Shown: piece after piece, positions 1,506-18,134 of the stretch
Numbering within the stretch: position 1 is the first letter of the stretch
How the letters are laid out: every line of letters begins with the position of its first letter
Assembly: GCA_051294375.1 (NCBI GenBank)
Contig: CM119265.1
Coordinates: 7,450,629 to 7,514,628 of the forward strand
From: Paraspadella gotoi
Lineage: Eukaryota; Animalia; Chaetognatha
DNA length: 64,000 nucleotides
Direction of reading: 5' to 3'
Notes under the pieces: model-generated
What the model was told of the DNA's origin: nothing
The model's input: the letters and a program-made list of their open reading frames with translations, nothing else
Database searches by the model: none
Position numbers and translations under genes: made by a program

Positions 1506-4500
1506 CTGTCTCGCTCTCTCTCCCGAGGTGAGGAGTGTCGTGACCGAGACGACGACGACGATGCCGCAGCAGACGCTGCCCGCCGCCGACGCAGCGTAAG
1601 CCGCGAGGGCGTCGTTTCCGGCGAGGCGCGCGTCTGCGTCGTGGAAGAGCGGGAGGAGGAGATCGCCGCCGGAGAGAAGAGCGGCGGCGCTGCGGCGGAG
1701 ACGAGGACAGCAGCGGCGAAATATCTTGAGCCGAGGTGCGCGTCTGCGGTGAAGATAAAGAATGTTTCGGTTACGATCCTAATTTGTCATTTCTTAGAAA
1801 TACTACTTCTTTGTTCCTATTTTTCACTGACCTGTCTTCGGCATTTGGCAGCCGGTCCTTGAGCCCGTGAGAATTGCCTTCTCCTTGACTAGTGGAGACA
1901 TTTGGGTCGACGTCCCATGGGATTCTTGTCGAGCCACTCGGCCAGGTGCTTTAGCGGTGGGGCCTTCGAGCCCGTTATCTGTTCAAAAATAATGTAAATA
2001 ATGTAATATATAATTCTATTAATGTTTAGTCGCTTGAAACGATCAAAGTCATAAAAATCCCAACTTACCTCTTCGGTGTAGCGATTAAAAACAGAGACGT
2101 TTTCTTCTCCGGTCACTTTTTCCCAATCGATGGCCCTGGGGTCCAGACGGCCTCTTCTTCCTCTTCCCAACGAGTCGGCCAATCCGGCCGCCGACGGACG
2201 CCGCGAGCCGGAGGCACCGCCCAGCGCCGCGCCATAAAGACCGTCGCCCCGCAGCAGCGCCTGAAAAAACAACAAGAATCCACCTTTTCATTATCTTTAA
2301 TTCCCGATAAAAAAAAATAAAATACATAAAATAATACGACAATATGCAAATGAGATTCAGATAATTCACAATTATCTGCTACAAATTTCGATATTCCCCT
2401 TACTGTAGCTGCAGCTCTGGTCGGCAGCAACCAGCGACGACAGCGCCGCCGCAGTCGCCGGGTCCATGGCGCGCCGGAGCCGAGCAGCGAGATGAGGCGA
2501 GGGAGGAAAGGAGGCTGCGGGAGAGGAAGAGGAGGAGGTTGAGAGAAGAGGAGGAGGAGGCGGCCGTGGTGAGGAGTCCCAGGGGGAGGAGAGGGAAGAG
2601 CGGCCTGAGGAAGACATGAGCCTGCGGAAATGGAAGGGATGGAAGTAAAAAAAAACAGACGAAAAATTAGAACCAAATTAAATCAATTAATACCAACAAA
2701 ACATAGAAATCACGAACACGAACCAGCCAAGGAACTGGCGAAGATAGCGACGAAAAGAGGACGCCGCAGACGAAGACGACGCCGCGGCAGCAGCAGCAGC
2801 AGCCGCTGCCATCGACGACGACGCCGACGATGAATGATGTTTGGACGACGATGAGGCAGCCGGACGCTCTTTGCCACGACCTCGTTAGACGTCGAAGGCG
2901 CGCCCAAAGACGCCGCCACGCCGGTCGCGGCGCCGCCTCCAGCGCACCGCGATGCCCAGTTGGAACCGAGCTTCCCGACGATCCGTCCATTTGGACTTTT
3001 TCTGAGACGCGTGGATCTGCGACCGCGGCCGAAGATTTAGAGACGCCCACGCGCCGGCGGAGGAGGAGTCGAGCCGAGATCGAGGTAAGGAGGTTGAGGT
3101 TTGGAGGTTGAGGGCGAGAGGTCGTCTCTTTGGCAGATAGACTCTTGCCGGAAGCCAATGCCTGAGGAAAGAAATAAATTAATCGTATTTGTATCTTGGC
3201 AGAGATGCGCCAAGAAAGAAAAGAAACGAAAAGAGTCTTACAGGGAGAGATCAAAAGAACCAAAGCTATACGTTGCAATTACTAAAAAAATTACTAATAC
3301 ATTACCTCCTCAGTGAGTCTACTCTGCCAGCGGAGATAGTCGCCACCATTTCTTGGCTCAACCCCATCGACTGCGACCAATTTCTCCGTTGCCTCGAGGA
3401 AACTTGAGGTGCGCCTCGCCAAGGAGGGAGAAGGCCGTAGAGGGCGCTTGTCGCCGCTGGAGAGAGAGAGAAAAAAAAAGTCAAGAGGTAAAAGGAAGGA
3501 GAGGGGAGAAGAGAGAAAGTGAGAGAATGTAACGTCGATAAAAAAAAGAAATATGAACTTACCGCCGCAGCGGCGGCTGCCGCGAGGCTTGGAGTCGGAC
3601 TTGTCTCTTCCCCGGATCGCGAAGAAGCGTGGCTGCCCGCGGGGCAGCGGAACAAGTCGAGAGTCGAGGATCCTGGCGAAAATAACAATTTAGGTTAAAA
3701 GAGTGGTCAGAGACAGAATGAGTTGGGGTCAAATTGACCCCAGGTTAAAGAGTGGTCAGCAGACCAAAATGTGTTGTGGTCAAAACTGACCCCAGGTTAA
3801 AAGAGTGGTCAGAGACAGAATGAGCTGAGGTCAAAACTGACCATGATTACAACCATATTTAAAGAGTGGTCAAAGAGACAGAATGGTTGGGGTCCCAAAA
3901 CTGACCCCAGTTAAAGAGTGGTCAGAGACAAATGTGTTGTGGTCAACTGCCCAGGTTAAAAAGTGGTTCAGAGACCAGATGAGCTGGTGTCAAAACTACC
4001 TGTCCGTGCCCGGCTGGGCGATATGATTGAGAATCAGCAGAGCGACGAACGATAGAGAACGTGGATCGATAAGCGATCTGGTGATAAGCGGGTGGAGCCG
4101 TGGGCCTTAAGGGGTCAAGATGAAGATCAAGGAAATAAAAAAGGAGGTGATAATGTAAAAATATATGAAATCTAATTGGCAATGAAACAATTTTTTACAT
4201 AATAAAGATATAAATAGGAAAATGAGGTACATGCGTACGATATAATAAATTTTATTTATGATCCATCCTTTACTAGTCGTGATACGCACACCCAACAGTC
4301 ACCCTCGGCTCCCATGAAATCACCGCTTGCTGCCCGCCCACCGCCGCCGCGGCTCCCTGCCGATGAAAAAAGCCCCCCCCTTTTTTGGGCCGGGAGCACA
4401 CCCAAAAGGTCCTCGCAACTTGCAGTGTGTTGCGCCATCCAACTCGAGTCTCTTTCCCGCTTTCGCCGAGAGCGGATTCGTAGATTCGTTCTGGGATAAA

Positions 4501-7560: not shown

Positions 7561-8922
7561 GGAGTTGCTATTTCTGTAGCGAACATTTTCGGATTGTGTA
7601 CGATCTGGGATTCTTGCCAAGTCGCCGAGTAATCGCCGCAATCCCGAGAGCGACTTCTGCCTTTTTTTTATACGGGAAGTCTTTAATTTTTATTCTCTTT
7701 TCCCAAAAAGGAAATAATGTCAAAAAGTTTCATTTTAAGTTGACAACTTTAGGTTCGGTTTGACGAAGAAAATCGTCAATTCCAATACAACTGAAAGATT
7801 CACTCATGGAAATAAACATAAATAGAAATAAATAGAAATAAACATTTTTCGTTAAAAGAATTCTTGCAAACGTTCGTTTGAGTTTGGTACTGGTTTGTAG
7901 ATATACGAAGAGTAAAACTTAAAAAGAAATCTACTAACTTGGATAAAATGAAGGTCGTCAACGATTAAACGTGAGAAATGATCGCTAGATCACAACTGCG
8001 AGAATCTATTCCCTCATTTTCTTTCTCTCTTTCTGTCTCTTTTTCTCTCTCTTTCTTTCTTGATCGGACCCGGACTCTCTCCGTGCCTTCCTCTTTACTG
8101 TCGTTGTTGTTTTTTCAAAGCCAACAGCTTTCTCTCTTTCTCTCTCTTCTCGTAAATCCACTTTTTNNNNNNNNNNNNNNNNNNNNNNNNNNNNNNNNNN
8201 NNNNNNNNNNNNNNNNNNNNNNNNNNNNNNNNNNNNNNNNNNNNNNNNNNNNNNNNNNNNNNNNNNNNNNNNNNNNNNNNNNNNNNNNNNNNNNNNNNNN
8301 NNNNNNNNNNNNNNNNNNNNNNNNNNNNNNNNNNNNNNNNNNNNNNNNNNNNNNNNNNNNNNNNNNNNNNNNNNNNNNNNNNNNNNNNNNNNNNNNNNNN
8401 NNNNNNNNNNNNNNNNNNNNNNNNNNNNNNNNNNNNNNNNNNNNNNNNAAAAAAAAAAAAAAAATAAAAGGGGAAAAAATATTCTTCTTGGTTTTTATTA
8501 ATCGTTTTCCGATTCCTTCCTTTCTCTACTTTCTTTGGGTGTAAAGTGTAAACTCGTTTTTGCTAAAAAAATATTTAAAAAAAGGATAAAAATATTCCTG
8601 GTTTGCTTTATTTTTTATCGCAGTTTTGTGTCTCAGTGAGAACGAAAAATTTGTTTTCGGGTTCTGCCTTTCGTAAACTAATTAAAAATCAATATTAAAA
8701 TTTTGTCTAAATTCAGGGGAAAGAATCGAAAAAGTTGTTTTTTTCTATTTTTAGTTCCTAATTAATGATTTTTTTTTCCGTTTTATTAAGGTCTATTCAG
8801 TAAGGGCTATATCACGATTGTTCAAAATTAAAGGGTTCAAACAAAAATGGGTAACTTTTTTTTTTTCTCCAACAGAGAAAACGACAAAAAATACCGTGTA
8901 TTAAAAAAAAAAAGAAGAAAAA

Positions 8923-10196
8923 ATGGCGACGCCCCGCGGTCGTTTGGATTATCGGAAACATCGCGCCATCTCGATGCAGATTGAACAAAAGGGCAACGAC
9001 GACGACGATGGGGACGACGACGAGAACGCCGTCGTCGTCGAATTCAACGGCCATCGCTTCGTCCGCCAGAAAAACGCCAAGACTCGTCCCATCTATTGTT
9101 CCTTCTGCAAGAGGAGCATCCAATGGTCCGGAAAGGATTCGTACAGGTTGGCTCGGGCCCGACATTGTCGGCAACTTGCCAGTCGAAGACCGAGAAATCT
9201 CGGTCTTTGCGACGATGTTATCGCTCAGGGCCGATTTGACTTGAAAGGAATAAAGAAGCGACATCTATTGGTTGTTAAAGAATCGCGTTCGAAGGAGGAT
9301 TAAAGGTTTTAAAGAATTGAGAGACAATGATGATTGCTCACGAACGATTATCGAACTTTAATCTTTGCTTGAATCTTGTCTGGTAAGAAAAGATAATCTC
9401 TCGACTTAAATCTGCGTCAAGTCATTGAGGCACGTTCTTTGGCCACCTTACTCGGTCGTCGTAGTTGTCTAAGTGTTATTTAGTTATACACATGAGAATA
9501 GTAACCGGAAAAGGGTCTTGTAAACTTTTCAATAAGATTTATTACCCTTATTAACTAATACTTTTAAAAATTAAAACGTTGCATATTTCTCCTCCCTCCC
9601 CTTCCCGCGCCAGATGTCGCGGATGCCACCTGTCCGTCCACGCCAGATGTCACGATCAGTTATTGAGCGCCTGTCCAGCCGCTAAGCGCGCCACGCCGGG
9701 CGATGCTTCCCCGAAACTGGCGCGCATCACACTAAACGTCCCTCATCGATTCGTGAAAACGACTTTCAGGGCGCCGGCCTTTTGTCGGGTGGGGAAACCA
9801 ATTGTTCAGTGTGTATTATTATAAAATAAATAGTTTTTTGACCGTTTCTTATCGTTTTATAGTCTCATAGTTTTAAGTGAGATACCATAAACATAATATA
9901 AATTAAAGATCATCATTAAAGCAGTGTCAATAATTCTAGTATAAGTATCGTACTTACACGCCACAATACGAAATTTAAACAATCTGGTAACGATTGTAAC
10001 GTCATTTTTACCAACGCTTTCCAGCAATGCGGTCGAATGATTCACGGGATTCTCAAGCAGGGCGTCCGCTGCTCCGCCTGTGGTGTCGCCTGCCATTTTG
10101 CCTGCTGCAGAAGATCGCTGCGGATTGCGGTTTTTGGATCAAAGGCAGCTCGTTGCGTCGCGTTATCGCTTAATGAAATCTTCGAACAAAAGAGTG
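8923..10196 (+). CDS. Tandem C1 (DAG/phorbol-ester type zinc finger) domains, novel-PKC-like, 3 exons
   Basis: Exons 8923-9146, 9614-9788 and 10025-10196 join with consistent phases (AG|A, phase 2; CGG|CAA, phase 0). C1A is HRF..CSFC-x13-CRGC-x4-H-x2-C-x7-C. C1B is HRF-..PAFCRQCGRMIHGILKQGVRCSACGVACHFAC, and its final x7-CG (xQKIAADCG) needs one added base near 10105. Confidence 0.9.
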
Positions 10197-10583
10197 GTGA
10201 GGTTTCCAAGGCGAGAACAAAATATTATTGCTAGGCCGAAATTGAATTGAAATTCACGAATATTACGTTTGAATATTTGAATATGAATATTTGAGTATTG
10301 TGTGGAGACGATGCCGCGAGCAGTTTACGTTCCGTTGCAAACAAGGGTCCCGAAATTCGGATCGGACTGTAGTCCGTCACTACAGAGTGGGTTAGACGCG
10401 CCCGTCCCGCTTTTACTTAGGTGAATCAGCAGGGCGCGAATCCGAGTCCTTTGGGTTGGGAGGAGCTCGTGCAACCTTCCGGCGCCATAGGTGCTAGCTG
10501 ATTCACGGACGAGTAACGGGGTATGAAATACTACCGCTACAATTGATACTCTATTAGTTCGATCAACAAACCCCGTTTCCAAG

Positions 10584-12123
10584 GCGACCAATAAAGCGCA
10601 ACATGAGCGTCCCGCTCATCGACGACATGGCGGAGGCGGAGTTTCGATCTTCCGCCAAAACCCTGGAGGAGAACGACGTCGTGTTGAAGGCGCTGCGGAA
10701 GCGGCTCATCGAGAGGAAACGAAGGCTGGAGGCGGAGGCGAAACTAGGAAACGACGCCGAGAAAGAGAAAGGAAAGAACGACGGGAAAACGGTGAATACC
10801 GGCGCCGTAAGCGCCGTAAGCGCCGGTGACAACGACTCGGAGGAAGAGTCCATCATGGTAACCACGGTGACGCTGCGAAACTCAATCCCAACGCGGAAAC
10901 AGTCGTCAAGACGCGAAGACGGGTGGAAGGAGGCGTCGACGAGAGACTCCACTCTTCGAACTCTCGACGCCGTCGACGACGCTCCCCACGACGACGGCGC
11001 CTTCGAGGATCTCGATCTCCTCGTCCAACGCGTCTTCGGCGTCGAATCTCATCCCCTCAACAAACTCGACATCCTCCACGCGGAGTCGTTCCGGCGAAAG
11101 GCCGAGTCGGTCCTAGACGCCGTCGCCAAGTCATTCGTTGAAGACCGGCGGCGCCGTCACGCCTACGAGATCTTGGAGAAACGCGACGGGCGGCTCGAGG
11201 ACGCACTCGAGGCGCTGGCTGCGCTGCATCGAAAGCCCGCCGAGACGGACGGAGTCGGCGGCTGAAGCCACTCTAAGCGGAGATGTGTGGGAAGGCGCGG
11301 CGGTGGAAGGCGTGAGATGGTGGATATGGCGGCGTTGTACGAGGAGGCGGCGGACGAGGCGCTCCGGAGAGACGCCGAGTTTCTCGTGGAGGAGGTGGTG
11401 CTGGACAGGAATTGGGGCGCCATGCTGAGGGTGTATCGGTTGGCGGCGGTCGATGATGACGAGAAGTTAAAGCGGGTCTTCAGCAGGGGAAGCAACGAAG
11501 CGAAGGTAAGTTAAGTCGAGGGAGGAATGGGGGTAAGGGTGGCAAGGCTACTTGGTGGAAAATGTGGCAAATTAAAGCGGTTTTGCGATGGACTGAGTGT
11601 GTCATTCTCTATATGTCTGATCATACAATTACACATTAATACCTCGACCAACAGATCGGCGTTCCCCTCGAATTCCTCCCCCGCGACTATGTACCCCTCC
11701 GCCGCCACCGTCGCACCGACCCGCGCCGCTTCAGCCGAAAGCGCCGTCGTCATGGATACGAAGATGTCGTCCGAATCCTCCGCCGGATGGTCGAGTCGGA
11801 GAGCATCCTCGAGAAGTTGGAATGCGTCGTCGAAGCCGCCAAGTCCGTCTGCGTCTGCGCGGCGAGGATACAGATGGCGCGTGGGGTGGTCGAGGAGGAA
11901 GAGGAGGAAGAGGAGACAGGAAAAACAAAAGACGAGATCGAAGCGAGACTGTCGACGGGTGGCGCTCTCTCTTGGGGAGAGACGGAAGATGAAAAACAAA
12001 AGGCAAAGACGATAAGGAGCGAAAAGGAAGAAGACGCTGACATCTCGCTAAATAACGACAATAACAAGGAAGACACGGACAGGGAGAAACAAAAGAACAC
12101 GGAAAAAGGCGTCAAGATCGACG

Positions 12124-12163
<40 letters not shown>

Positions 12164-12809
12164 ATCTTTGCGTCAAAGTCAACAAAATGAGAAGCAAATC
12201 GATGAACAACAAAAGAAGGCAGCGACGACGTCGACAGCGACGACGAAGACGACGACAACGACGACAGCTGTCGTGACGACAAATACAGCGACGAAAACAA
12301 CGACGAAAACAGCGACGAAAACAACGACGACAACAGCAAATAACGAACAAGGTTTTGTCGACGCCTCTACTTTTTTCGATGTCGAATCTTCGAAAATCGA
12401 CGCCTCCGGACGATTGAAAATCTCGGCGCCGATTCAGCTTCAACCGGCGCCAGAGCCAAATTTTGTCGCCACCAATCCGCCAGCCGACGCCGCCGACGCC
12501 GCCTCGCCCGACCTTGTGGCGGCGATGGCTCTGGCGATGCTGAAAACGCGCCGGTTTCTCGTCGCCGCCGAAATCGACGCCGTCTCGAGAGTCTTTTACG
12601 CGCCGCATCGAACGGCGGAGGAGCATTGCTGCATAGGAATGCTGCAAAGGGCCAGGGAGTTGCTGTTGGGCATCGAGGTTGAAGAGGGGGAGGAAGATCA
12701 GGAGGAAGAAGAGGAAGAAGAAGAGGAGGAACAGTTAAGAGAGGAAGAGGAGAAGAGAGAGACGAACTACGAACCTCCGTGGCACAACAGACTCGATTTT
12801 CTTATGTGA
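10584..12809 (+). CDS. VPS9D1-like protein region with a split, divergent VPS9 domain, 2 exons
   Basis: Exon 10584-11505 (two frameshifts around 11240-11315; donor AAG|GTAAGT) and exon 11655-12809 (acceptor ACAG|ATC, in frame to TGA). The segments SHPLNKL, LVEEVVLDRNWGAMLRVYRL, IGVPLEFLP, GYEDVVRILRRMVESESILEKLECVVEAAKSVCVCA and LVAAEIDAV..EEHCCIGMLQRARELL are collinear with VPS9D1 as I recall it (DHPIAQL; EEPFFSPLWPLLLALYR; IGIPTKLLP; KKLECIVRTLRIICVCA; EEGYCLTSLQSAL). Confidence 0.75.
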
Positions 12810-15800
12810 AGGAAAGTAAGAGAAAATGCATTATCACATGATTGAAATGATGTGTAAAATGGCATGGCACTGAAGATTTAGCATGAAACAATTAAATGTC
12901 GTAGTTTTTCGAATATTTCTTTACCTTTCAAACAACGATCGGTAAGGTTTTAATGAGAACGCAGAGAGTCAAAATATGGCAAGTTATAGTTACAGCTAAT
13001 TAAATTATTAAATTAGATATACATAGTTTTATGTAGATCGCTGTTATCATCCAGAATTTCAAAACCACTGTCAATAATTTTTTTCATTCGTCGCGTTCCA
13101 GACTGGGTTGTGCTTTTTTGGGATTTTTTAGTGACGAACCCGTTTTATTTTCTGTTTTTTTTTTATCTGGATTGAGTTTTATATTTTTTGTTTCGGTTTG
13201 AATTTCTCTTTCCTCTCCTCTTTATCAAATTGGGGCACCTCCCTGAGTCTCTGCCCTCAAAACGTCTTCCGTTGTCCTCGATTCAATCGTTAATTTCCTC
13301 GCTTTATCTTCCTTCTCCCTTTTTCCTTTTTTTCCTTCTCCTTTTTCCTTTTTTTCTACTCCTTTTTCCTTTCCTCCATCACCCTTTTACTCCCTTTTAA
13401 AAATCCACCTCCGACAGGGAGCTCAATCTCTCATTCTTTCCGTCTCCTTCTTTCCTTTCCTTTCCTCCTTTTCTTTCCTTTCAATTCTCGCTCGAGAGTC
13501 TCCTCGTTTTTTACAATATTTCATGGCTTTATTTGGCTCCTTTTAATGTTTGGCATAATAATCCGCGTGGCCCGCCAATGTTTCTTTCAATTCTTTCCCT
13601 CGCCAACTCTCTCTCTCTCTCTCTCTCTAGAGCGCCCACCCTCACAGAGACTTCTCTCCCCTTCTCCCCCACCCACTCCCCCTCCACCCTTTGCCCATTT
13701 CATCCTCGCGAAAAGCTCAGGCGTTGACAGGCTGAAGGCAGCCAAACCTCATAAAGCTTGCTACGCGTCGGTAATAAGCAGAACATCTGCAACCTCCTCG
13801 CTCTTTCTTCTCTCTCTCGTCTCCGTCATCGTCTCGTTCTGCTCTTCGTCTGCGATCTCTGCTCTGCTCGGTCCGTTCTCTCTCATTCTCTCCTCGTTCT
13901 TCTCTCGGGTCTCATCATCGTCACTCTCTCCTCGTCTGCTGCTCTCTCGCTGCCCGTGTTTTTTTTTCCTTTATCCGGCCAGAAAACAGAAGTGGAAGGA
14001 TGGGAAAAGCGCCAAAAGACGGAAGAGAGAGGAAAGAGAGTGAGANNNNNNNNNNNNNNNNNNNNNNNNNNNNNNNNNNNNNNNNNNNNNNNNNNNNNNN
14101 NNNNNNNNNNNNNNNNNNNNNNNNNNNNNNNNNNNNNNNNNNNNNNNNNNNNNNNNNNNNNNNNNNNNNNNNNNNNNNNNNNNNNNNNNNNNNNNNNNNN
14201 NNNNNNNNNNNNNNNNNNNNNNNNNNNNNNNNNNNNNNNNNNNNNNNNNNNNNNNNNNNNNNNNNNNNNNNNNNNNNNNNNNNNNNNNNNNNNNNNNNNN
14301 NNNNNNNNNNNNNNNNNNNNNNNNNNNNNNNNNNNNNNNNNNNNNNNNNNNNNNNNNNNNNNNNNNNNNNNNNNNNNNNNNNNNNNNNNNNNNNNNNNNN
14401 NNNNNNNNNNNNNNNNNNNNNNNNNNNNNNNNNNNNNNNNNNNNNNNNNNNNNNNNNNNNNNNNNNNNNNNNNNNNNNNNNNNNNNNNNNNNNNNNNNNN
14501 NNNNNNNNNNNNNNNNNNNNNNNNNNNNNNNNNNNNNNNNNNNNNNNNNNNNNNNNNNNNNNNNNNNNNNNNNNNNNNNNNNNNNNNNNNNNNNNNNNNN
14601 NNNNNNNNNNNNNNNNNNNNNNGGAGAAGTTTAAAGGTGAGTATGGAAGTAAGGCCAGGTTCTTGCTGAAGGGTGGGTTAGTCTCGGGTGGGACGCCCGT
14701 GGAGACGCAGACGCCGATCGATCGAAAAGACGATGAAAGCGACGACGACGACGACGACGATGGAGGCTGAGAATAATGTAGACGATACAGAAATAAAATG
14801 TTTGAAACATAAAGAAATACTGTAAAATGTTTTGAGGGTTTCAACTTTTAGAACCTACTATTAACCATATTTCATTTACGGTATTTAAGTATTGATTCTT
14901 TCTTTCTTAGTTTTTTTTTTCTCGTTTGTTTGTTTATTTATTCTTCTGTTTTTTGTTTAATAAACATGGCGAGGATGACAAAGACGAAGAAGACAACAAC
15001 AACTTCAGAGTCGACGGCGAATTCGGTTAGAATAGAGACGGAGACGAATTTAAAGAGAGAGAGAGAGAGTTTGAGACGGTGAATAGAGACGGAGAGAGAG
15101 AGAGGGAGCGACAGGAGGAGTAAACAGTTGGGGAGACGAAGCGAAAAGAGAAAGTGGATTGTAGGCCTTACAATGAAGGGGGAAGGGAGGGAGAATGAGA
15201 ATGGGGGAAAGGAGAGAAAGGGGGAGGAGAAGTAGAACATAGTTTTGGGTTCGGGCTAAATTCGGGCGTTTGAGCAAAAGGAAGTGAGATGGGTTCAAGA
15301 CTAAGACTAAGAAAAAAAAATTTATAAATTGTTTAAACACATAAAAATACGACTGAAATAGTTGACATCCAATCAACAATAATTGTAAGTACTGTTACGA
15401 AATAACAAACTCTTATATTTCGATGAAAATCAATTTCTTTACTTTTCCCGATGCTCTTCTGTTCATGTCTTGCTGACTCGATTAGTAGCGACATCTTTTG
15501 TTTTACTTTGAATTCAAGTATTTACTAAAGTACAGATTCCGTTGCATTGCACGGCGGTCTCTGATTGCTCCACCGATTCAACGGATTCAAACTTCGTTTT
15601 GACGACTTGTTAGTCTTTCACTGCGTTTTTACTGCTTTCTTAGATTGCAATATAAACACTTTATAGATACTTTAAGAATAAGATAATTTGTGATCGCTGG
15701 ATTGGTGAACTTTTTTGTTAGAGAAGCAACCCTTTTTTGGTACAATTTTGGCTTCAGAAACAAGTAAGAAAAGACTCTTAAAACTTTAATACATTTGCTG

Positions 15801-16199: not shown

Positions 16200-16850
16200 A
16201 GCGACGACAAACGACGACGACGACGACAAACGACGACGACGACGACAAACGACGACCGAGAAGAATCTCGGCGTCGAAGTCCGAAGACAAATTCCCGCCA
16301 GCGACCGACGACGACGACGACGACGATGAAGACGACGAACACGACGACCTCTGAGGACGACAAATCTTTGTCAGAGAAAACCGCGCGAAATTGGATTCGA
16401 CGACGACGATGACGACGACGACAACAAAGATGAGGACGAACGCAGAGGGCGTGTCGCGTCGAAGGCGACGAAAGACGGAAAACCGAAAAGAGACGATGAA
16501 GACGACGAAAACAATGACGACGACAACGACGACGACGAATTTCAAAAACTGCGAAACTCGACTTCCGACGAGAGAATCCAACGTAGGAAAAGAAGGACGA
16601 CTAGCAGAGACGATTGCGGCGAAGTCGGCGGCGACGATGGCGGAGAAGAAAGCGACGAATCCCCAGGTCAAAGGCGAAGACTGGCTCCGGAGACAAGGAG
16701 GAAGGTCACGGCGAAACCTTTGAGGACGAAGATGGTGACGACGATGAAGACAAAGGCGATGACGATGACGAAGGCAACGACGAAGGAGAACCTCGCCCGG
16801 TCATTTGCCAATGACGACGACGACGACGACGACGACGACGAAGAGGGCAA
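16200..16850. repeat. Dense (GAC/GAT)n trinucleotide tract
   Basis: Multiple GAC runs. The overlapping poly-D/T/R ORFs have no recognisable domain. Confidence 0.8.
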
Positions 16851-18134
16851 GGTCACGGAATTCCATCCCCGGCAACGACGTCGCTCGTCTTGTTTACGAC
16901 TCTCGCCGTCGTTGGACGCGATTCAATGTAATTGGCCTAATTGTACGTTTGTTCTCGATGACGCCAGGCTGCAACGAAAGAACGATGAGAGAAAAAGAGA
17001 GAGAGGGCGCGATAGTGTGGAGCGGACGAGAGAGATTGAGGAACACGCCGCCTATCCTAAGGCCCACACCGTCCTACCCGGCATGGCCCCACAAACGCTG
17101 TAATGGACAACACCACCGTCCGGACCCGTCTCCCGATAATCGAGAGACGAGACCGAGATGAGAACGAGCAGAGAGAGATAGCAACGGATGAGTAGATACT
17201 TCCCGCTCTCCTCTAGGCAGACGACGATCACGATTATAACCACATGAGAGAGATGAGGAATTAACGATATTTAAAATGTCCAAAAAAAGGAGTGTATATG
17301 GGAGGAAGAAAGTTAGACGGAGAAAAAGCCGTAGGAAAGCCATCAAATTCATTGACGGAAGACAAAAAAAAAAAAAAATACCTTGAGTTTTTCACAAAAT
17401 TATAATCTTAGTTCTATTTATTTCCCTTACTTGTCGTTTCCAGGCGGAGAAAAATTGTGAAGCAAAAATAGAAAAAGGAGTAAAAAAAAAAATAAAATGT
17501 TATTTCAATTTTCGTTTTTCGTTTTTCGTTTTCCGTTTCGGGTTTTCGGTTTAACCGGCATCAAGAAGTCTGCACTCAAACGCAGAAAAACCGAATCCTC
17601 GCAAAACTGAAATTTTCCAGACGCCAACTGGAAAAAATGGAGGAAAAAAGATGAGGAAAAAGGGAAAAAAAAGGGGAAAAAAGGAAGAACAGAAATAAAG
17701 GGGAAATAAAAAATCTGAAAAAAGTCCATGCGTGAGTAGATATTGAAAGGTAAAACCCAGTAGTTATTTGATAGTCAACGTAAGTAGTTTGTCACACGAG
17801 ACTATTAAATCATCAGATTTCATCTGGAGAAAAGTATACAATATTACTTTTTCAAGAACGAATCCTTGAACTTAAAGTCATAGATAATATCAAAACCAAC
17901 TAATCTCAAAAGTACAGCGAGCAATCAAACCTAAATTATAAATGAAGGATGGCATACAATTTGAAAGAATTTCATTGACCAAAAGTAATGGAAATTTCGT
18001 TTGATCTAAAAACCTTTTTTGTCTCAACATCTGTGCGTTTGTGTTTTACACATTCACCCACGTCAATTTCTTCAGCGCCACTGTGCTGCTTCTCTGTTTT
18101 CCATTCGCTCTGTCTTCTCTCTCTCTCTCTCTCT

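Follow-up and report, generated by a model that had tools for sequence, protein, structure and literature searches.

A spliced chaetognath gene joining PKC-type C1 domains to a VPS9D1-derived module without catalytic residues: a candidate lipid-recruited pseudo-exchange factor

In the Rab guanine nucleotide exchange factor (GEF) Rabex-5, passages of PMC3096779 name four residues of the VPS9 domain as essential (D313, P317, Y354 and T357); according to passages of PMC3563681, the D313A/Y354A double mutant has about 1% of wild-type activity, with Rab5 recruitment reduced, not abolished, and the single mutants keep a few percent of activity and still recruit Rab5. In diacylglycerol (DAG)-sensitive C1 domains, four residues are strictly conserved (Pro241, Gly253, Gln257 and Gly258, at positions 11, 23, 27 and 28) and Trp252 at position 22 acts as an affinity toggle, as described in passages of PMC9110374. 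The two domains are treated separately in the relevant passages of a review (PMC12475976). Further, passages of Herman et al. 2018 (PMC6032885) describe lineage-specific VPS9 fusions, including PDZ-PX-Vps9 in ochrophytes and additions of PH, zinc finger, kelch, CAP-Gly and RasGAP domains. Here, we describe a gene at positions 8923-12809 (+ strand) of a 64,000-nt stretch of the chaetognath Paraspadella gotoi (contig CM119265.1, positions 7,450,629 to 7,514,628; hereafter the window), in which a C1A-C1B tandem of the protein kinase C (PKC) type is spliced to a C-terminal part that is, judged by its sequence, a very divergent VPS9D1 without the MIT-like N-terminus.

Four things are direct results of the analysis: the exon joins, the indel-corrected frame, the changed residues and the homology of the two parts. 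The role of the protein is a prediction drawn from them and from a modelled fold: we give about an even chance to the reading that this single spliced gene, carrying C1A-C1B and an MIT-less VPS9D1 module that has lost its catalytic residues, acts as a lipid-recruited pseudo-GEF adaptor and not as a Rab activator.

Nine of eleven listed sequencing runs, from three studies, contain at least half of the sequence words of the queried stretch, and four of them were compared: three DNA runs (X1, X2 and X5) and one RNA-type run (X9), whose RNA status is a guess, no run being recorded as RNA. Two runs from other organisms of the RNA study (X10 and X11) contain almost none of these words. The gene has five exons on the + strand (8923-9146, 9614-9788, 10025-10196, 10584-11505 and 11655-12809), with an ATG at 8923 and GT...AG ends in all four introns. 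A single 2021-nt contig of X9 aligns to the window in five pieces (8929-9143, 9611-9788, 10052-10197, 10593-11503 and 11653-12109), which cover exons 1 to 4 and the beginning of exon 5 (to 12109) and leave out all four introns; a second X9 contig (record 26) spans 12171-12821 with 0 differences from the window, and the X9 depth is 0 in bins that lie wholly inside introns 1 and 2. Because the introns are precisely removed, the 2021-nt contig derives from spliced RNA. Its fusion joint leads from 10197 to 10593, with 6 letters between the pieces and 176 letters on the short side, which places donor 10196 against acceptor 10584; the transcript thus splices from C1B straight into the VPS9D1-like exon, not into an AGC kinase. 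An earlier note, made from the letters of the window, had proposed these exon ends, this donor and this acceptor, and had placed the C1 exons and the VPS9D1-like exon in one gene and one transcript; the GT/AG ends and the X9 contig, which joins all five exons, bear this out. The C1B exon and the VPS9D1-like exon are also linked in DNA contigs of X1 (9890-12109) and X2 (10052-11249), both of which cross intron 3. The neighbourhood of the two parts is therefore no misjoin, and a misjoin between 10.2 and 10.6 kb, which the earlier note had listed as a way to be wrong, was rejected; X5 breaks at a repeat, and X1 may come from the source sample.

As written in the window, exons 3 and 4 splice out of phase and the translation stops at amino acid 194. 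The earlier note had remarked that the phases agree only after an indel correction or with an extra exon, and an indel correction does bring them into agreement. In particular, X9 reads exon 3 with 1, 2 and 8 bases fewer at 10042, 10131 and 10158 and with one base more behind each of 10051 and 10107, a net change of -9 that gives an exon of 163 nt ending in phase 1; together with two further bases absent near 10591, this makes the phases match across the fusion junction. The differences at 10042 and 10051 are present in all three DNA runs compared, and over 10052-10222 X2 shows 11 gap letters, as X9 does, with an equal net change of -9. In exon 4, the window holds an in-frame TGA at 11263-11265, around which X9, X1 and X5 read differently, all of them gaining 27 nt (in frame) across the exon; X2 has no piece listed at this stretch. 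Since 20 of the 30 inserted letters are unread, the lack of a stop over 11250-11330 is deduced and not read directly, and 37 residues at about 11250-11330 are written as X in the 887-aa model. The indel-corrected frame is 2,664 nt long and encodes about 887 aa, with its sole stop at the end; the GC content at third codon positions (GC3) is 0.64-0.84 in the five exon stretches read in frame, compared to an intron GC content of 0.30-0.47. Dense indel differences set the window apart from every covering run at 9890-10600 and 11250-11330, and the flanking DNA is nearly identical (for example, 0 differences between X1 and the window over 8500-9801). Most likely, both stretches are faulty assembly patches that make an intact gene resemble a pseudogene; they may also represent a damaged haplotype.

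The fusion intron (intron 3, 10197-10583, + strand) begins with GT, ends in AAG and lies in phase 1. Its acceptor (10581-10583) is neither CAG nor TAG, and the transcript uses it despite an in-frame TAG 26 nt upstream; an alternative TAG acceptor at 10558 is ruled out by the RNA joint. Inside this intron, and outside the protein, sits a 250-bp high-copy element (10301-10550, no strand assigned), whose site is polymorphic: it is absent in X1 and X2, where 10300 is joined to 10551, and apparently present in X5. Its summed depth is about 1e5, versus about 80 for unique DNA in X1, and its family is abundant in the RNA-type run, with a summed depth in the thousands versus 12.7 for the gene. The element matches no Rfam family, gives no signal in a folding test (z -0.86) and has no second copy within the window. 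As a cause of the fusion it was rejected, the fused alleles of X1 and X2 being without it.

The C1 tandem is encoded by the first three exons. The coding part of exon 1 (8923-9146, + strand; GT donor at 9147) holds the ATG, a short basic stretch, an acidic spacer and the first half of C1A (His1 codon at 9052), and the X9 piece over 8929-9143 differs from it by 1 letter. Exon 2 (9614-9788, + strand; identical in X9) contains the end of C1A (last Cys at 9672-9674), a 23-aa linker and the start of C1B (His1 at 9744), and exon 3 (10025-10196, + strand; 163 nt in the transcript, with five indel differences in the window) completes C1B, whose last Cys lies at 10126-10128, and adds a short tail. In the corrected model, the two C1 domains are complete (residues 44-95 and 119-168, 23 aa apart), and 16 of 16 zinc ligands are kept. 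Exon 2 (E 7.7e-5) and exon 3 (E 2.5e-5) both match the Pfam C1_1 family, each under the 26.5-bit cut-off because introns split the domains. The best PDB match of exon 2 is PKC-delta C1A (E 1.3e-4); that of the uncorrected exon 3 is the Munc13-1 C1 domain, marginally above PKC-delta C1B, so PKC-delta is no more than a candidate for the donor subfamily. In accord with the earlier note, the six-frame translation of the window holds no kinase motif among its 1,456 stop-to-stop frames, and no Pfam kinase match was found in the window.

The same note had called the tandem a lipid sensor, a description that is half borne out, the DAG-binding core being present in C1B only. C1B keeps all four of Pro11, Gly23, Gln27 and Gly28, together with hydrophobic residues at positions 8, 13, 20, 21 and 24; in the read-corrected frame its toggle position 22 is Thr, with no Trp or Tyr. 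C1A keeps one of the four DAG-core residues, has Trp, Asp and Ser at positions 23, 27 and 28 and has a first loop that is 2 residues longer. The net charge is +9 for C1A and +7 for C1B. Ahead of C1A, the short basic stretch lies at 8950-8976, and a PDB search with exon 1 returned nothing relevant. In PKCs this position is that of the pseudosubstrate, and the stretch might be left over from the donor gene. Counted from the ATG at 8923, 43 aa precede C1A, and the X9 contig runs 24 letters past 8929; a further 5′ exon may lie in or beyond the gap at 8167-8448, so that an N-terminal C2-like domain is possible.

Exon 4 (10584-11505, + strand; faulty in the window at about 11250-11330) encodes the coiled-coil and helical region of the VPS9D1-derived module, which lacks the MIT-like N-terminus. 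Exon 5 (+ strand) opens with the N-terminal half of the VPS9 domain (11655-11882), which scores 24.9 bits with a VPS9D1 profile and is modelled at a predicted local distance difference test (pLDDT) of 76-95 over residues 31-80. It continues with an insertion of about 200 aa inside the domain (11883-12479), acidic, Thr-rich and of low complexity, delimited by the alignment and by low pLDDT; within it lies a (GAC)n run at which every contig breaks (12109/12171). The degenerate catalytic half follows (12480-12680; a 62-column gapless profile-profile match, with all four runs identical over 12171-12693), and the exon ends at 12681-12809 with a Glu-rich tether, the C-terminal motif YExPWHNRL (12768-12800) and the stop codon.

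A whole-library search with exon 5, over 1.84 billion representatives, gave three matches: a protein fragment here called P0001 (E 5e-21), P0002, whose match is one of low complexity and was set aside, and P0003, a fragment of a canonical VPS9 protein. A profile built from the whole-library matches found 632 proteins, and the 120 listed all carry PF02204 and are mostly named VPS9D1; none of these 120 has a C1 domain (PF00130 or C1 pattern). When the gene model is scored with a VPS9D1 profile built from 23 of these proteins, residues 461-578, encoded on both sides of the junction of exons 4 and 5, reach 36.9 bits, compared to at most 5.0 in 200 local shuffles, and the VPS9D1 helical region with the N-terminal half of VPS9 reaches 41.9 bits, compared to at most 5.5 in 500 shuffles. 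In the first half of exon 4, two upstream segments give weak but collinear VPS9D1 matches (3/500 and 34/500 shuffles as good); the last part of the exon matches strongly. The MIT-like N-terminus, which the earlier note had likewise not seen ahead of the VPS9D1 part, is indeed lacking: residues 1-190 fail the VPS9D1 profile (258/500 shuffles as good), and no such piece occurs in the 1,456 frames of the window. Pfam PF02204 (27-bit cut-off) does not match exon 5, whole or in halves. When the catalytic half is combined with P0001 into a profile of two sequences, the alignment is gapless across 62 columns, scoring 25.4 compared to at most 20.0 in 200 column shuffles. The AlphaFold model of exon 5 has a mean pLDDT of 61, with 72-95 in the VPS9 helices and low values in the insertion. 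When it was ranked against 48,161 chains, the top three were all VPS9 folds: Rabex-5 (Z 9.9, root-mean-square deviation (rmsd) 12.2, 150 aligned), AtVps9a (Z 9.4, rmsd 3.4, 117 aligned, spanning model residues 32-351) and Lpg0393 (Z 8.2, rmsd 2.9, 96 aligned).

With the Rabex-5 alignment setting the register, the gene keeps none of the four catalytic positions, P0001 keeps none, and the 120 VPS9D1 matches listed all keep all four. The replacements in the gene are Pro at D313 (12507-12509), Ala at P317 (12519-12521), Cys at Y354 (12627-12629) and Gly at T357 (12636-12638), all on the + strand and identical in all four runs; P0001 has G, M, F and K at these positions. The working Rab-GEF proposed in the earlier note is thus argued against by the replaced residues in both sequences. 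P0001 is an ENA protein fragment of 267 aa from a 1,845-nt contig (PF02204 16.4 bits, E 0.012) and is the sole clear relative among the 1.84 billion representatives. It is about 35-39% identical to the gene, has a VPS9-splitting insertion of about 110 aa at the place where the gene has its own, just before the catalytic loop, and carries the same YExPWHNRL motif after a Glu-rich tether. In the catalytic half, the two are identical at 19 of 58 positions. Among 42 near-invariant VPS9D1 columns, each keeps 9, and at 8 both have the same new residue; one Asp beside the catalytic position stands in both sequences. Simple decay fits this pattern less well than a loss of catalysis after which a new function came under constraint. 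In a tree of 19 rows, the gene and P0001 group together (100/99), but their branches are very long, at 2.9 and 6.1 changes per column, so the tree does not place the lineage.

Other searches for relatives were negative. A word-index search for longer homologous proteins found none among 7,968 candidates for exon 5 and 7,992 for exon 4, which is weak evidence; exact matching of 8 exon translations in the protein collection gave 0 hits; a metagenome alignment scan with Glu-run patterns gave 0 relatives in 627 stretches; and a motif scan gave 12 loci, 0 of them with a match beyond the motif. ESM Atlas holds no usable match for exon 5, and with P0001 it returns VPS9 clusters at 0.85 or less, a lead only.

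The proposed mechanism would run as follows. C1B, with its DAG core kept and Thr in place of Trp/Tyr22, would bind DAG weakly, and the basic, atypical C1A would add contacts to anionic lipids or to proteins, so that the protein would reach DAG-rich, anionic membranes, and would do so only where much DAG is made. There, the VPS9 module would keep its fold without driving nucleotide exchange on Rabs, and its re-shaped surface, together with the C-terminal motif on its acidic tether, would hold partners. These might be GTPases of the Rab5/21/22 family, bound without activation, in which case the protein would probably serve as a brake or holder on endosomes; alternatively, the partner might be new. 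As for origin, a plausible course is exon shuffling, in which the regulatory exons of a novel-type PKC would have taken the place of the MIT-like exons in a copy of VPS9D1. A bolder extension, tentative and more doubtful than not, is that the gene is the founding member of a lineage-wide C1-C1-pseudoVPS9 family. Its product would then be a DAG-gated brake or adaptor and, without any catalysis, would connect phospholipase C signalling directly with Rab5/21/22 endosomes. If this is true, we know of no earlier pseudo-GEF of the VPS9 family that is controlled by a lipid messenger.

Several observations weigh against the pseudo-GEF adaptor. The fusion junction depends on one contig of one run with a guessed RNA status, and this contig ends at 12109; what connects the catalytic half with the C1 exons is therefore an open genomic exon and not a single RNA contig. 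The residue register rests on a modest gapless alignment (HHalign probability 48.6%), and the catalytic half alone scores with neither the VPS9D1 profile nor Pfam. The exon 5 model was built on a VPS9D1 alignment, which makes the fold match partly circular, its Z of 8-10 falls in the tool's uncertain range for helical proteins, and a Foldseek search with the model gave no match at E<=0.001. P0001 starts at an internal Met within the N-terminal half of VPS9, its N-terminal domains lying outside the fragment. Residual activity is possible as well, since in cells the Rabex-5 double mutant had not lost all recruitment of Rab5 (passages of PMC3563681).

A first rival is a DAG-recruited and still active Rab-GEF, working through a re-modelled active site or on a co-diverged Rab, which we consider quite unlikely. 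The VPS9 fold is predicted to be intact, the Asp common to the gene and P0001 is in place, and the passages of PMC3563681 credit the Rabex-5 single mutants with some activity and with Rab5 recruitment; however, the gene and P0001 have different residues at each of the four key positions (P/G, A/M, C/F and G/K), unlike a shared new site, only 9 of the 42 near-invariant columns remain and a 200-aa insertion stands right before the catalytic loop. Somewhat less remote, yet still unlikely, is a pseudo-GEF scaffold whose C1 tandem binds proteins, or anionic lipids constitutively, without DAG control. C1A without Gly23, Gln27 and Gly28 and with its longer first loop, C1B with Thr22 and basic loop residues, the strongly basic character of both domains and the precedent of the GEF-H1 C1 domain, which binds microtubules (passages of PMC12475976), all favour it; however, the complete set of DAG-contact residues in C1B and its hydrophobic positions suggest a maintained groove.

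The remaining two alternatives concern the gene itself. A decaying chimera, transcribed but functionless, would suit the very long branches, the large low-complexity insertions and the apparent frameshifts and stop in the window, but the frameshifts and stop are missing from the covering runs, the zinc ligands and the contrast between exon GC3 and intron GC persist, and the C-terminal motif is common to a relative only about 35-39% identical; we judge it very improbable. Also very improbable, in our judgement, is a pair of neighbours that work separately: one gene would be the remnant of a PKC, with only its C1 part left, and the other a truncated VPS9D1 paralogue whose start is the Met just inside exon 4, with the joined RNA as minor read-through. 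An in-frame ATG 20 nt within exon 4, the weak AAG acceptor of intron 3, the single RNA run and the dropping of minor isoforms from contigs are consistent with two genes; against them, the joined contig is the only X9 contig listed over the exons, it is unbroken at the junction, in frame and of matching phase 1, and the corrected exon 3 has no stop before its donor. The pseudo-GEF adaptor is thus the reading we retain.

Elsewhere, the window is rich in microsatellites and contains 5,839 N in 20 gaps. An exon encoding a BRK domain lies at 1892-2287 on the - strand (E 3e-9); this domain is typical of CHD7/Kismet or Brahma-type remodellers, and a search of the window for helicase motifs was negative. 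Along with the C1 domains of PKC type and the homology to VPS9D1, this exon suggests that the DNA is from an animal. The 5′ exons that go with the BRK exon would be expected at higher coordinates (- strand), so its gene might enclose or adjoin the fusion gene. Imperfect repeats of about 55-60 bp, recognised by eye, occupy 3700-3990 between GC-rich stretches of the minus strand, and 16330-17100 (+ strand) holds a 257-aa acidic low-complexity frame with a Cys/His-containing end and no convincing Pfam match.

Overall, no described protein combining C1 and VPS9 was found in the literature searched, most subscription papers lying outside that search, in agreement with the earlier note, which knew of no characterised C1-C1-VPS9 protein. 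The C1-C1-VPS9 architecture with a pseudo-catalytic site is apparently undescribed; domain addition to VPS9 as such is already known. The fusions in the passages of PMC6032885 likewise join a membrane-targeting domain to VPS9 in one lineage; they differ in that C1 is not among the additions named there and catalytic loss is not discussed in those passages. In that text, 'C1 domain' and 'phorbol' have 0 occurrences, and one supplement has no match; another, larger supplement may list the architecture. The reach of the finding is limited to one lineage, with the fusion in one species and one RNA run and with an inferred function. It also has a practical side: Pfam is blind to the VPS9 part and the assembly masks the frame, so such genes would escape automated annotation.

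RasGRP (Ras/Rap), Vav and GEF-H1 (Rho), as portrayed in the source passages, resemble this gene in carrying C1 on one chain with a GEF-type domain; in contrast, theirs is a single C1 with an active CDC25 or DH domain, and none of them is a Rab-GEF. C1 domains thus link DAG to Ras and Rho GEFs, and no such link was found for Rab-GEFs in the literature searched. The novel PKCs (delta/theta/epsilon/eta) share two full C1 domains 23 aa apart, and exon 2 matches PKC-delta best; the linker of PKC-beta aligns as 8 residues shorter, and the tail after C1B presumably resembles that of delta/theta. Unlike the novel PKCs, this gene has an atypical C1A, Thr at the C1B toggle, no kinase and, in the current model, no C2. 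VPS9D1 (Vps9DCP1 / C16orf7) shares the collinear coiled-coil, helical and VPS9 segments (36.9 bits over exons 4-5), and every top match named in the listed results of the profile search is either a VPS9D1 or an unnamed VPS9 protein; the gene differs from it in having C1A-C1B for the MIT-like N-terminus, in the loss of four catalytic residues, in the 200-aa domain-splitting insertion and in an acidic tail with a conserved motif. VPS9D1 is said to have been reported as a Rab22A GEF (Nakashima 2023). P0001 shares with the gene the degenerate catalytic half, the insertion at the same place, the acidic tail and the C-terminal motif. Transcript-supported exon shuffling between PKC and VPS9D1, an apparent conversion to a pseudoenzyme and constraint in a second species would together make this locus a natural test of what the VPS9 fold does without catalysis.

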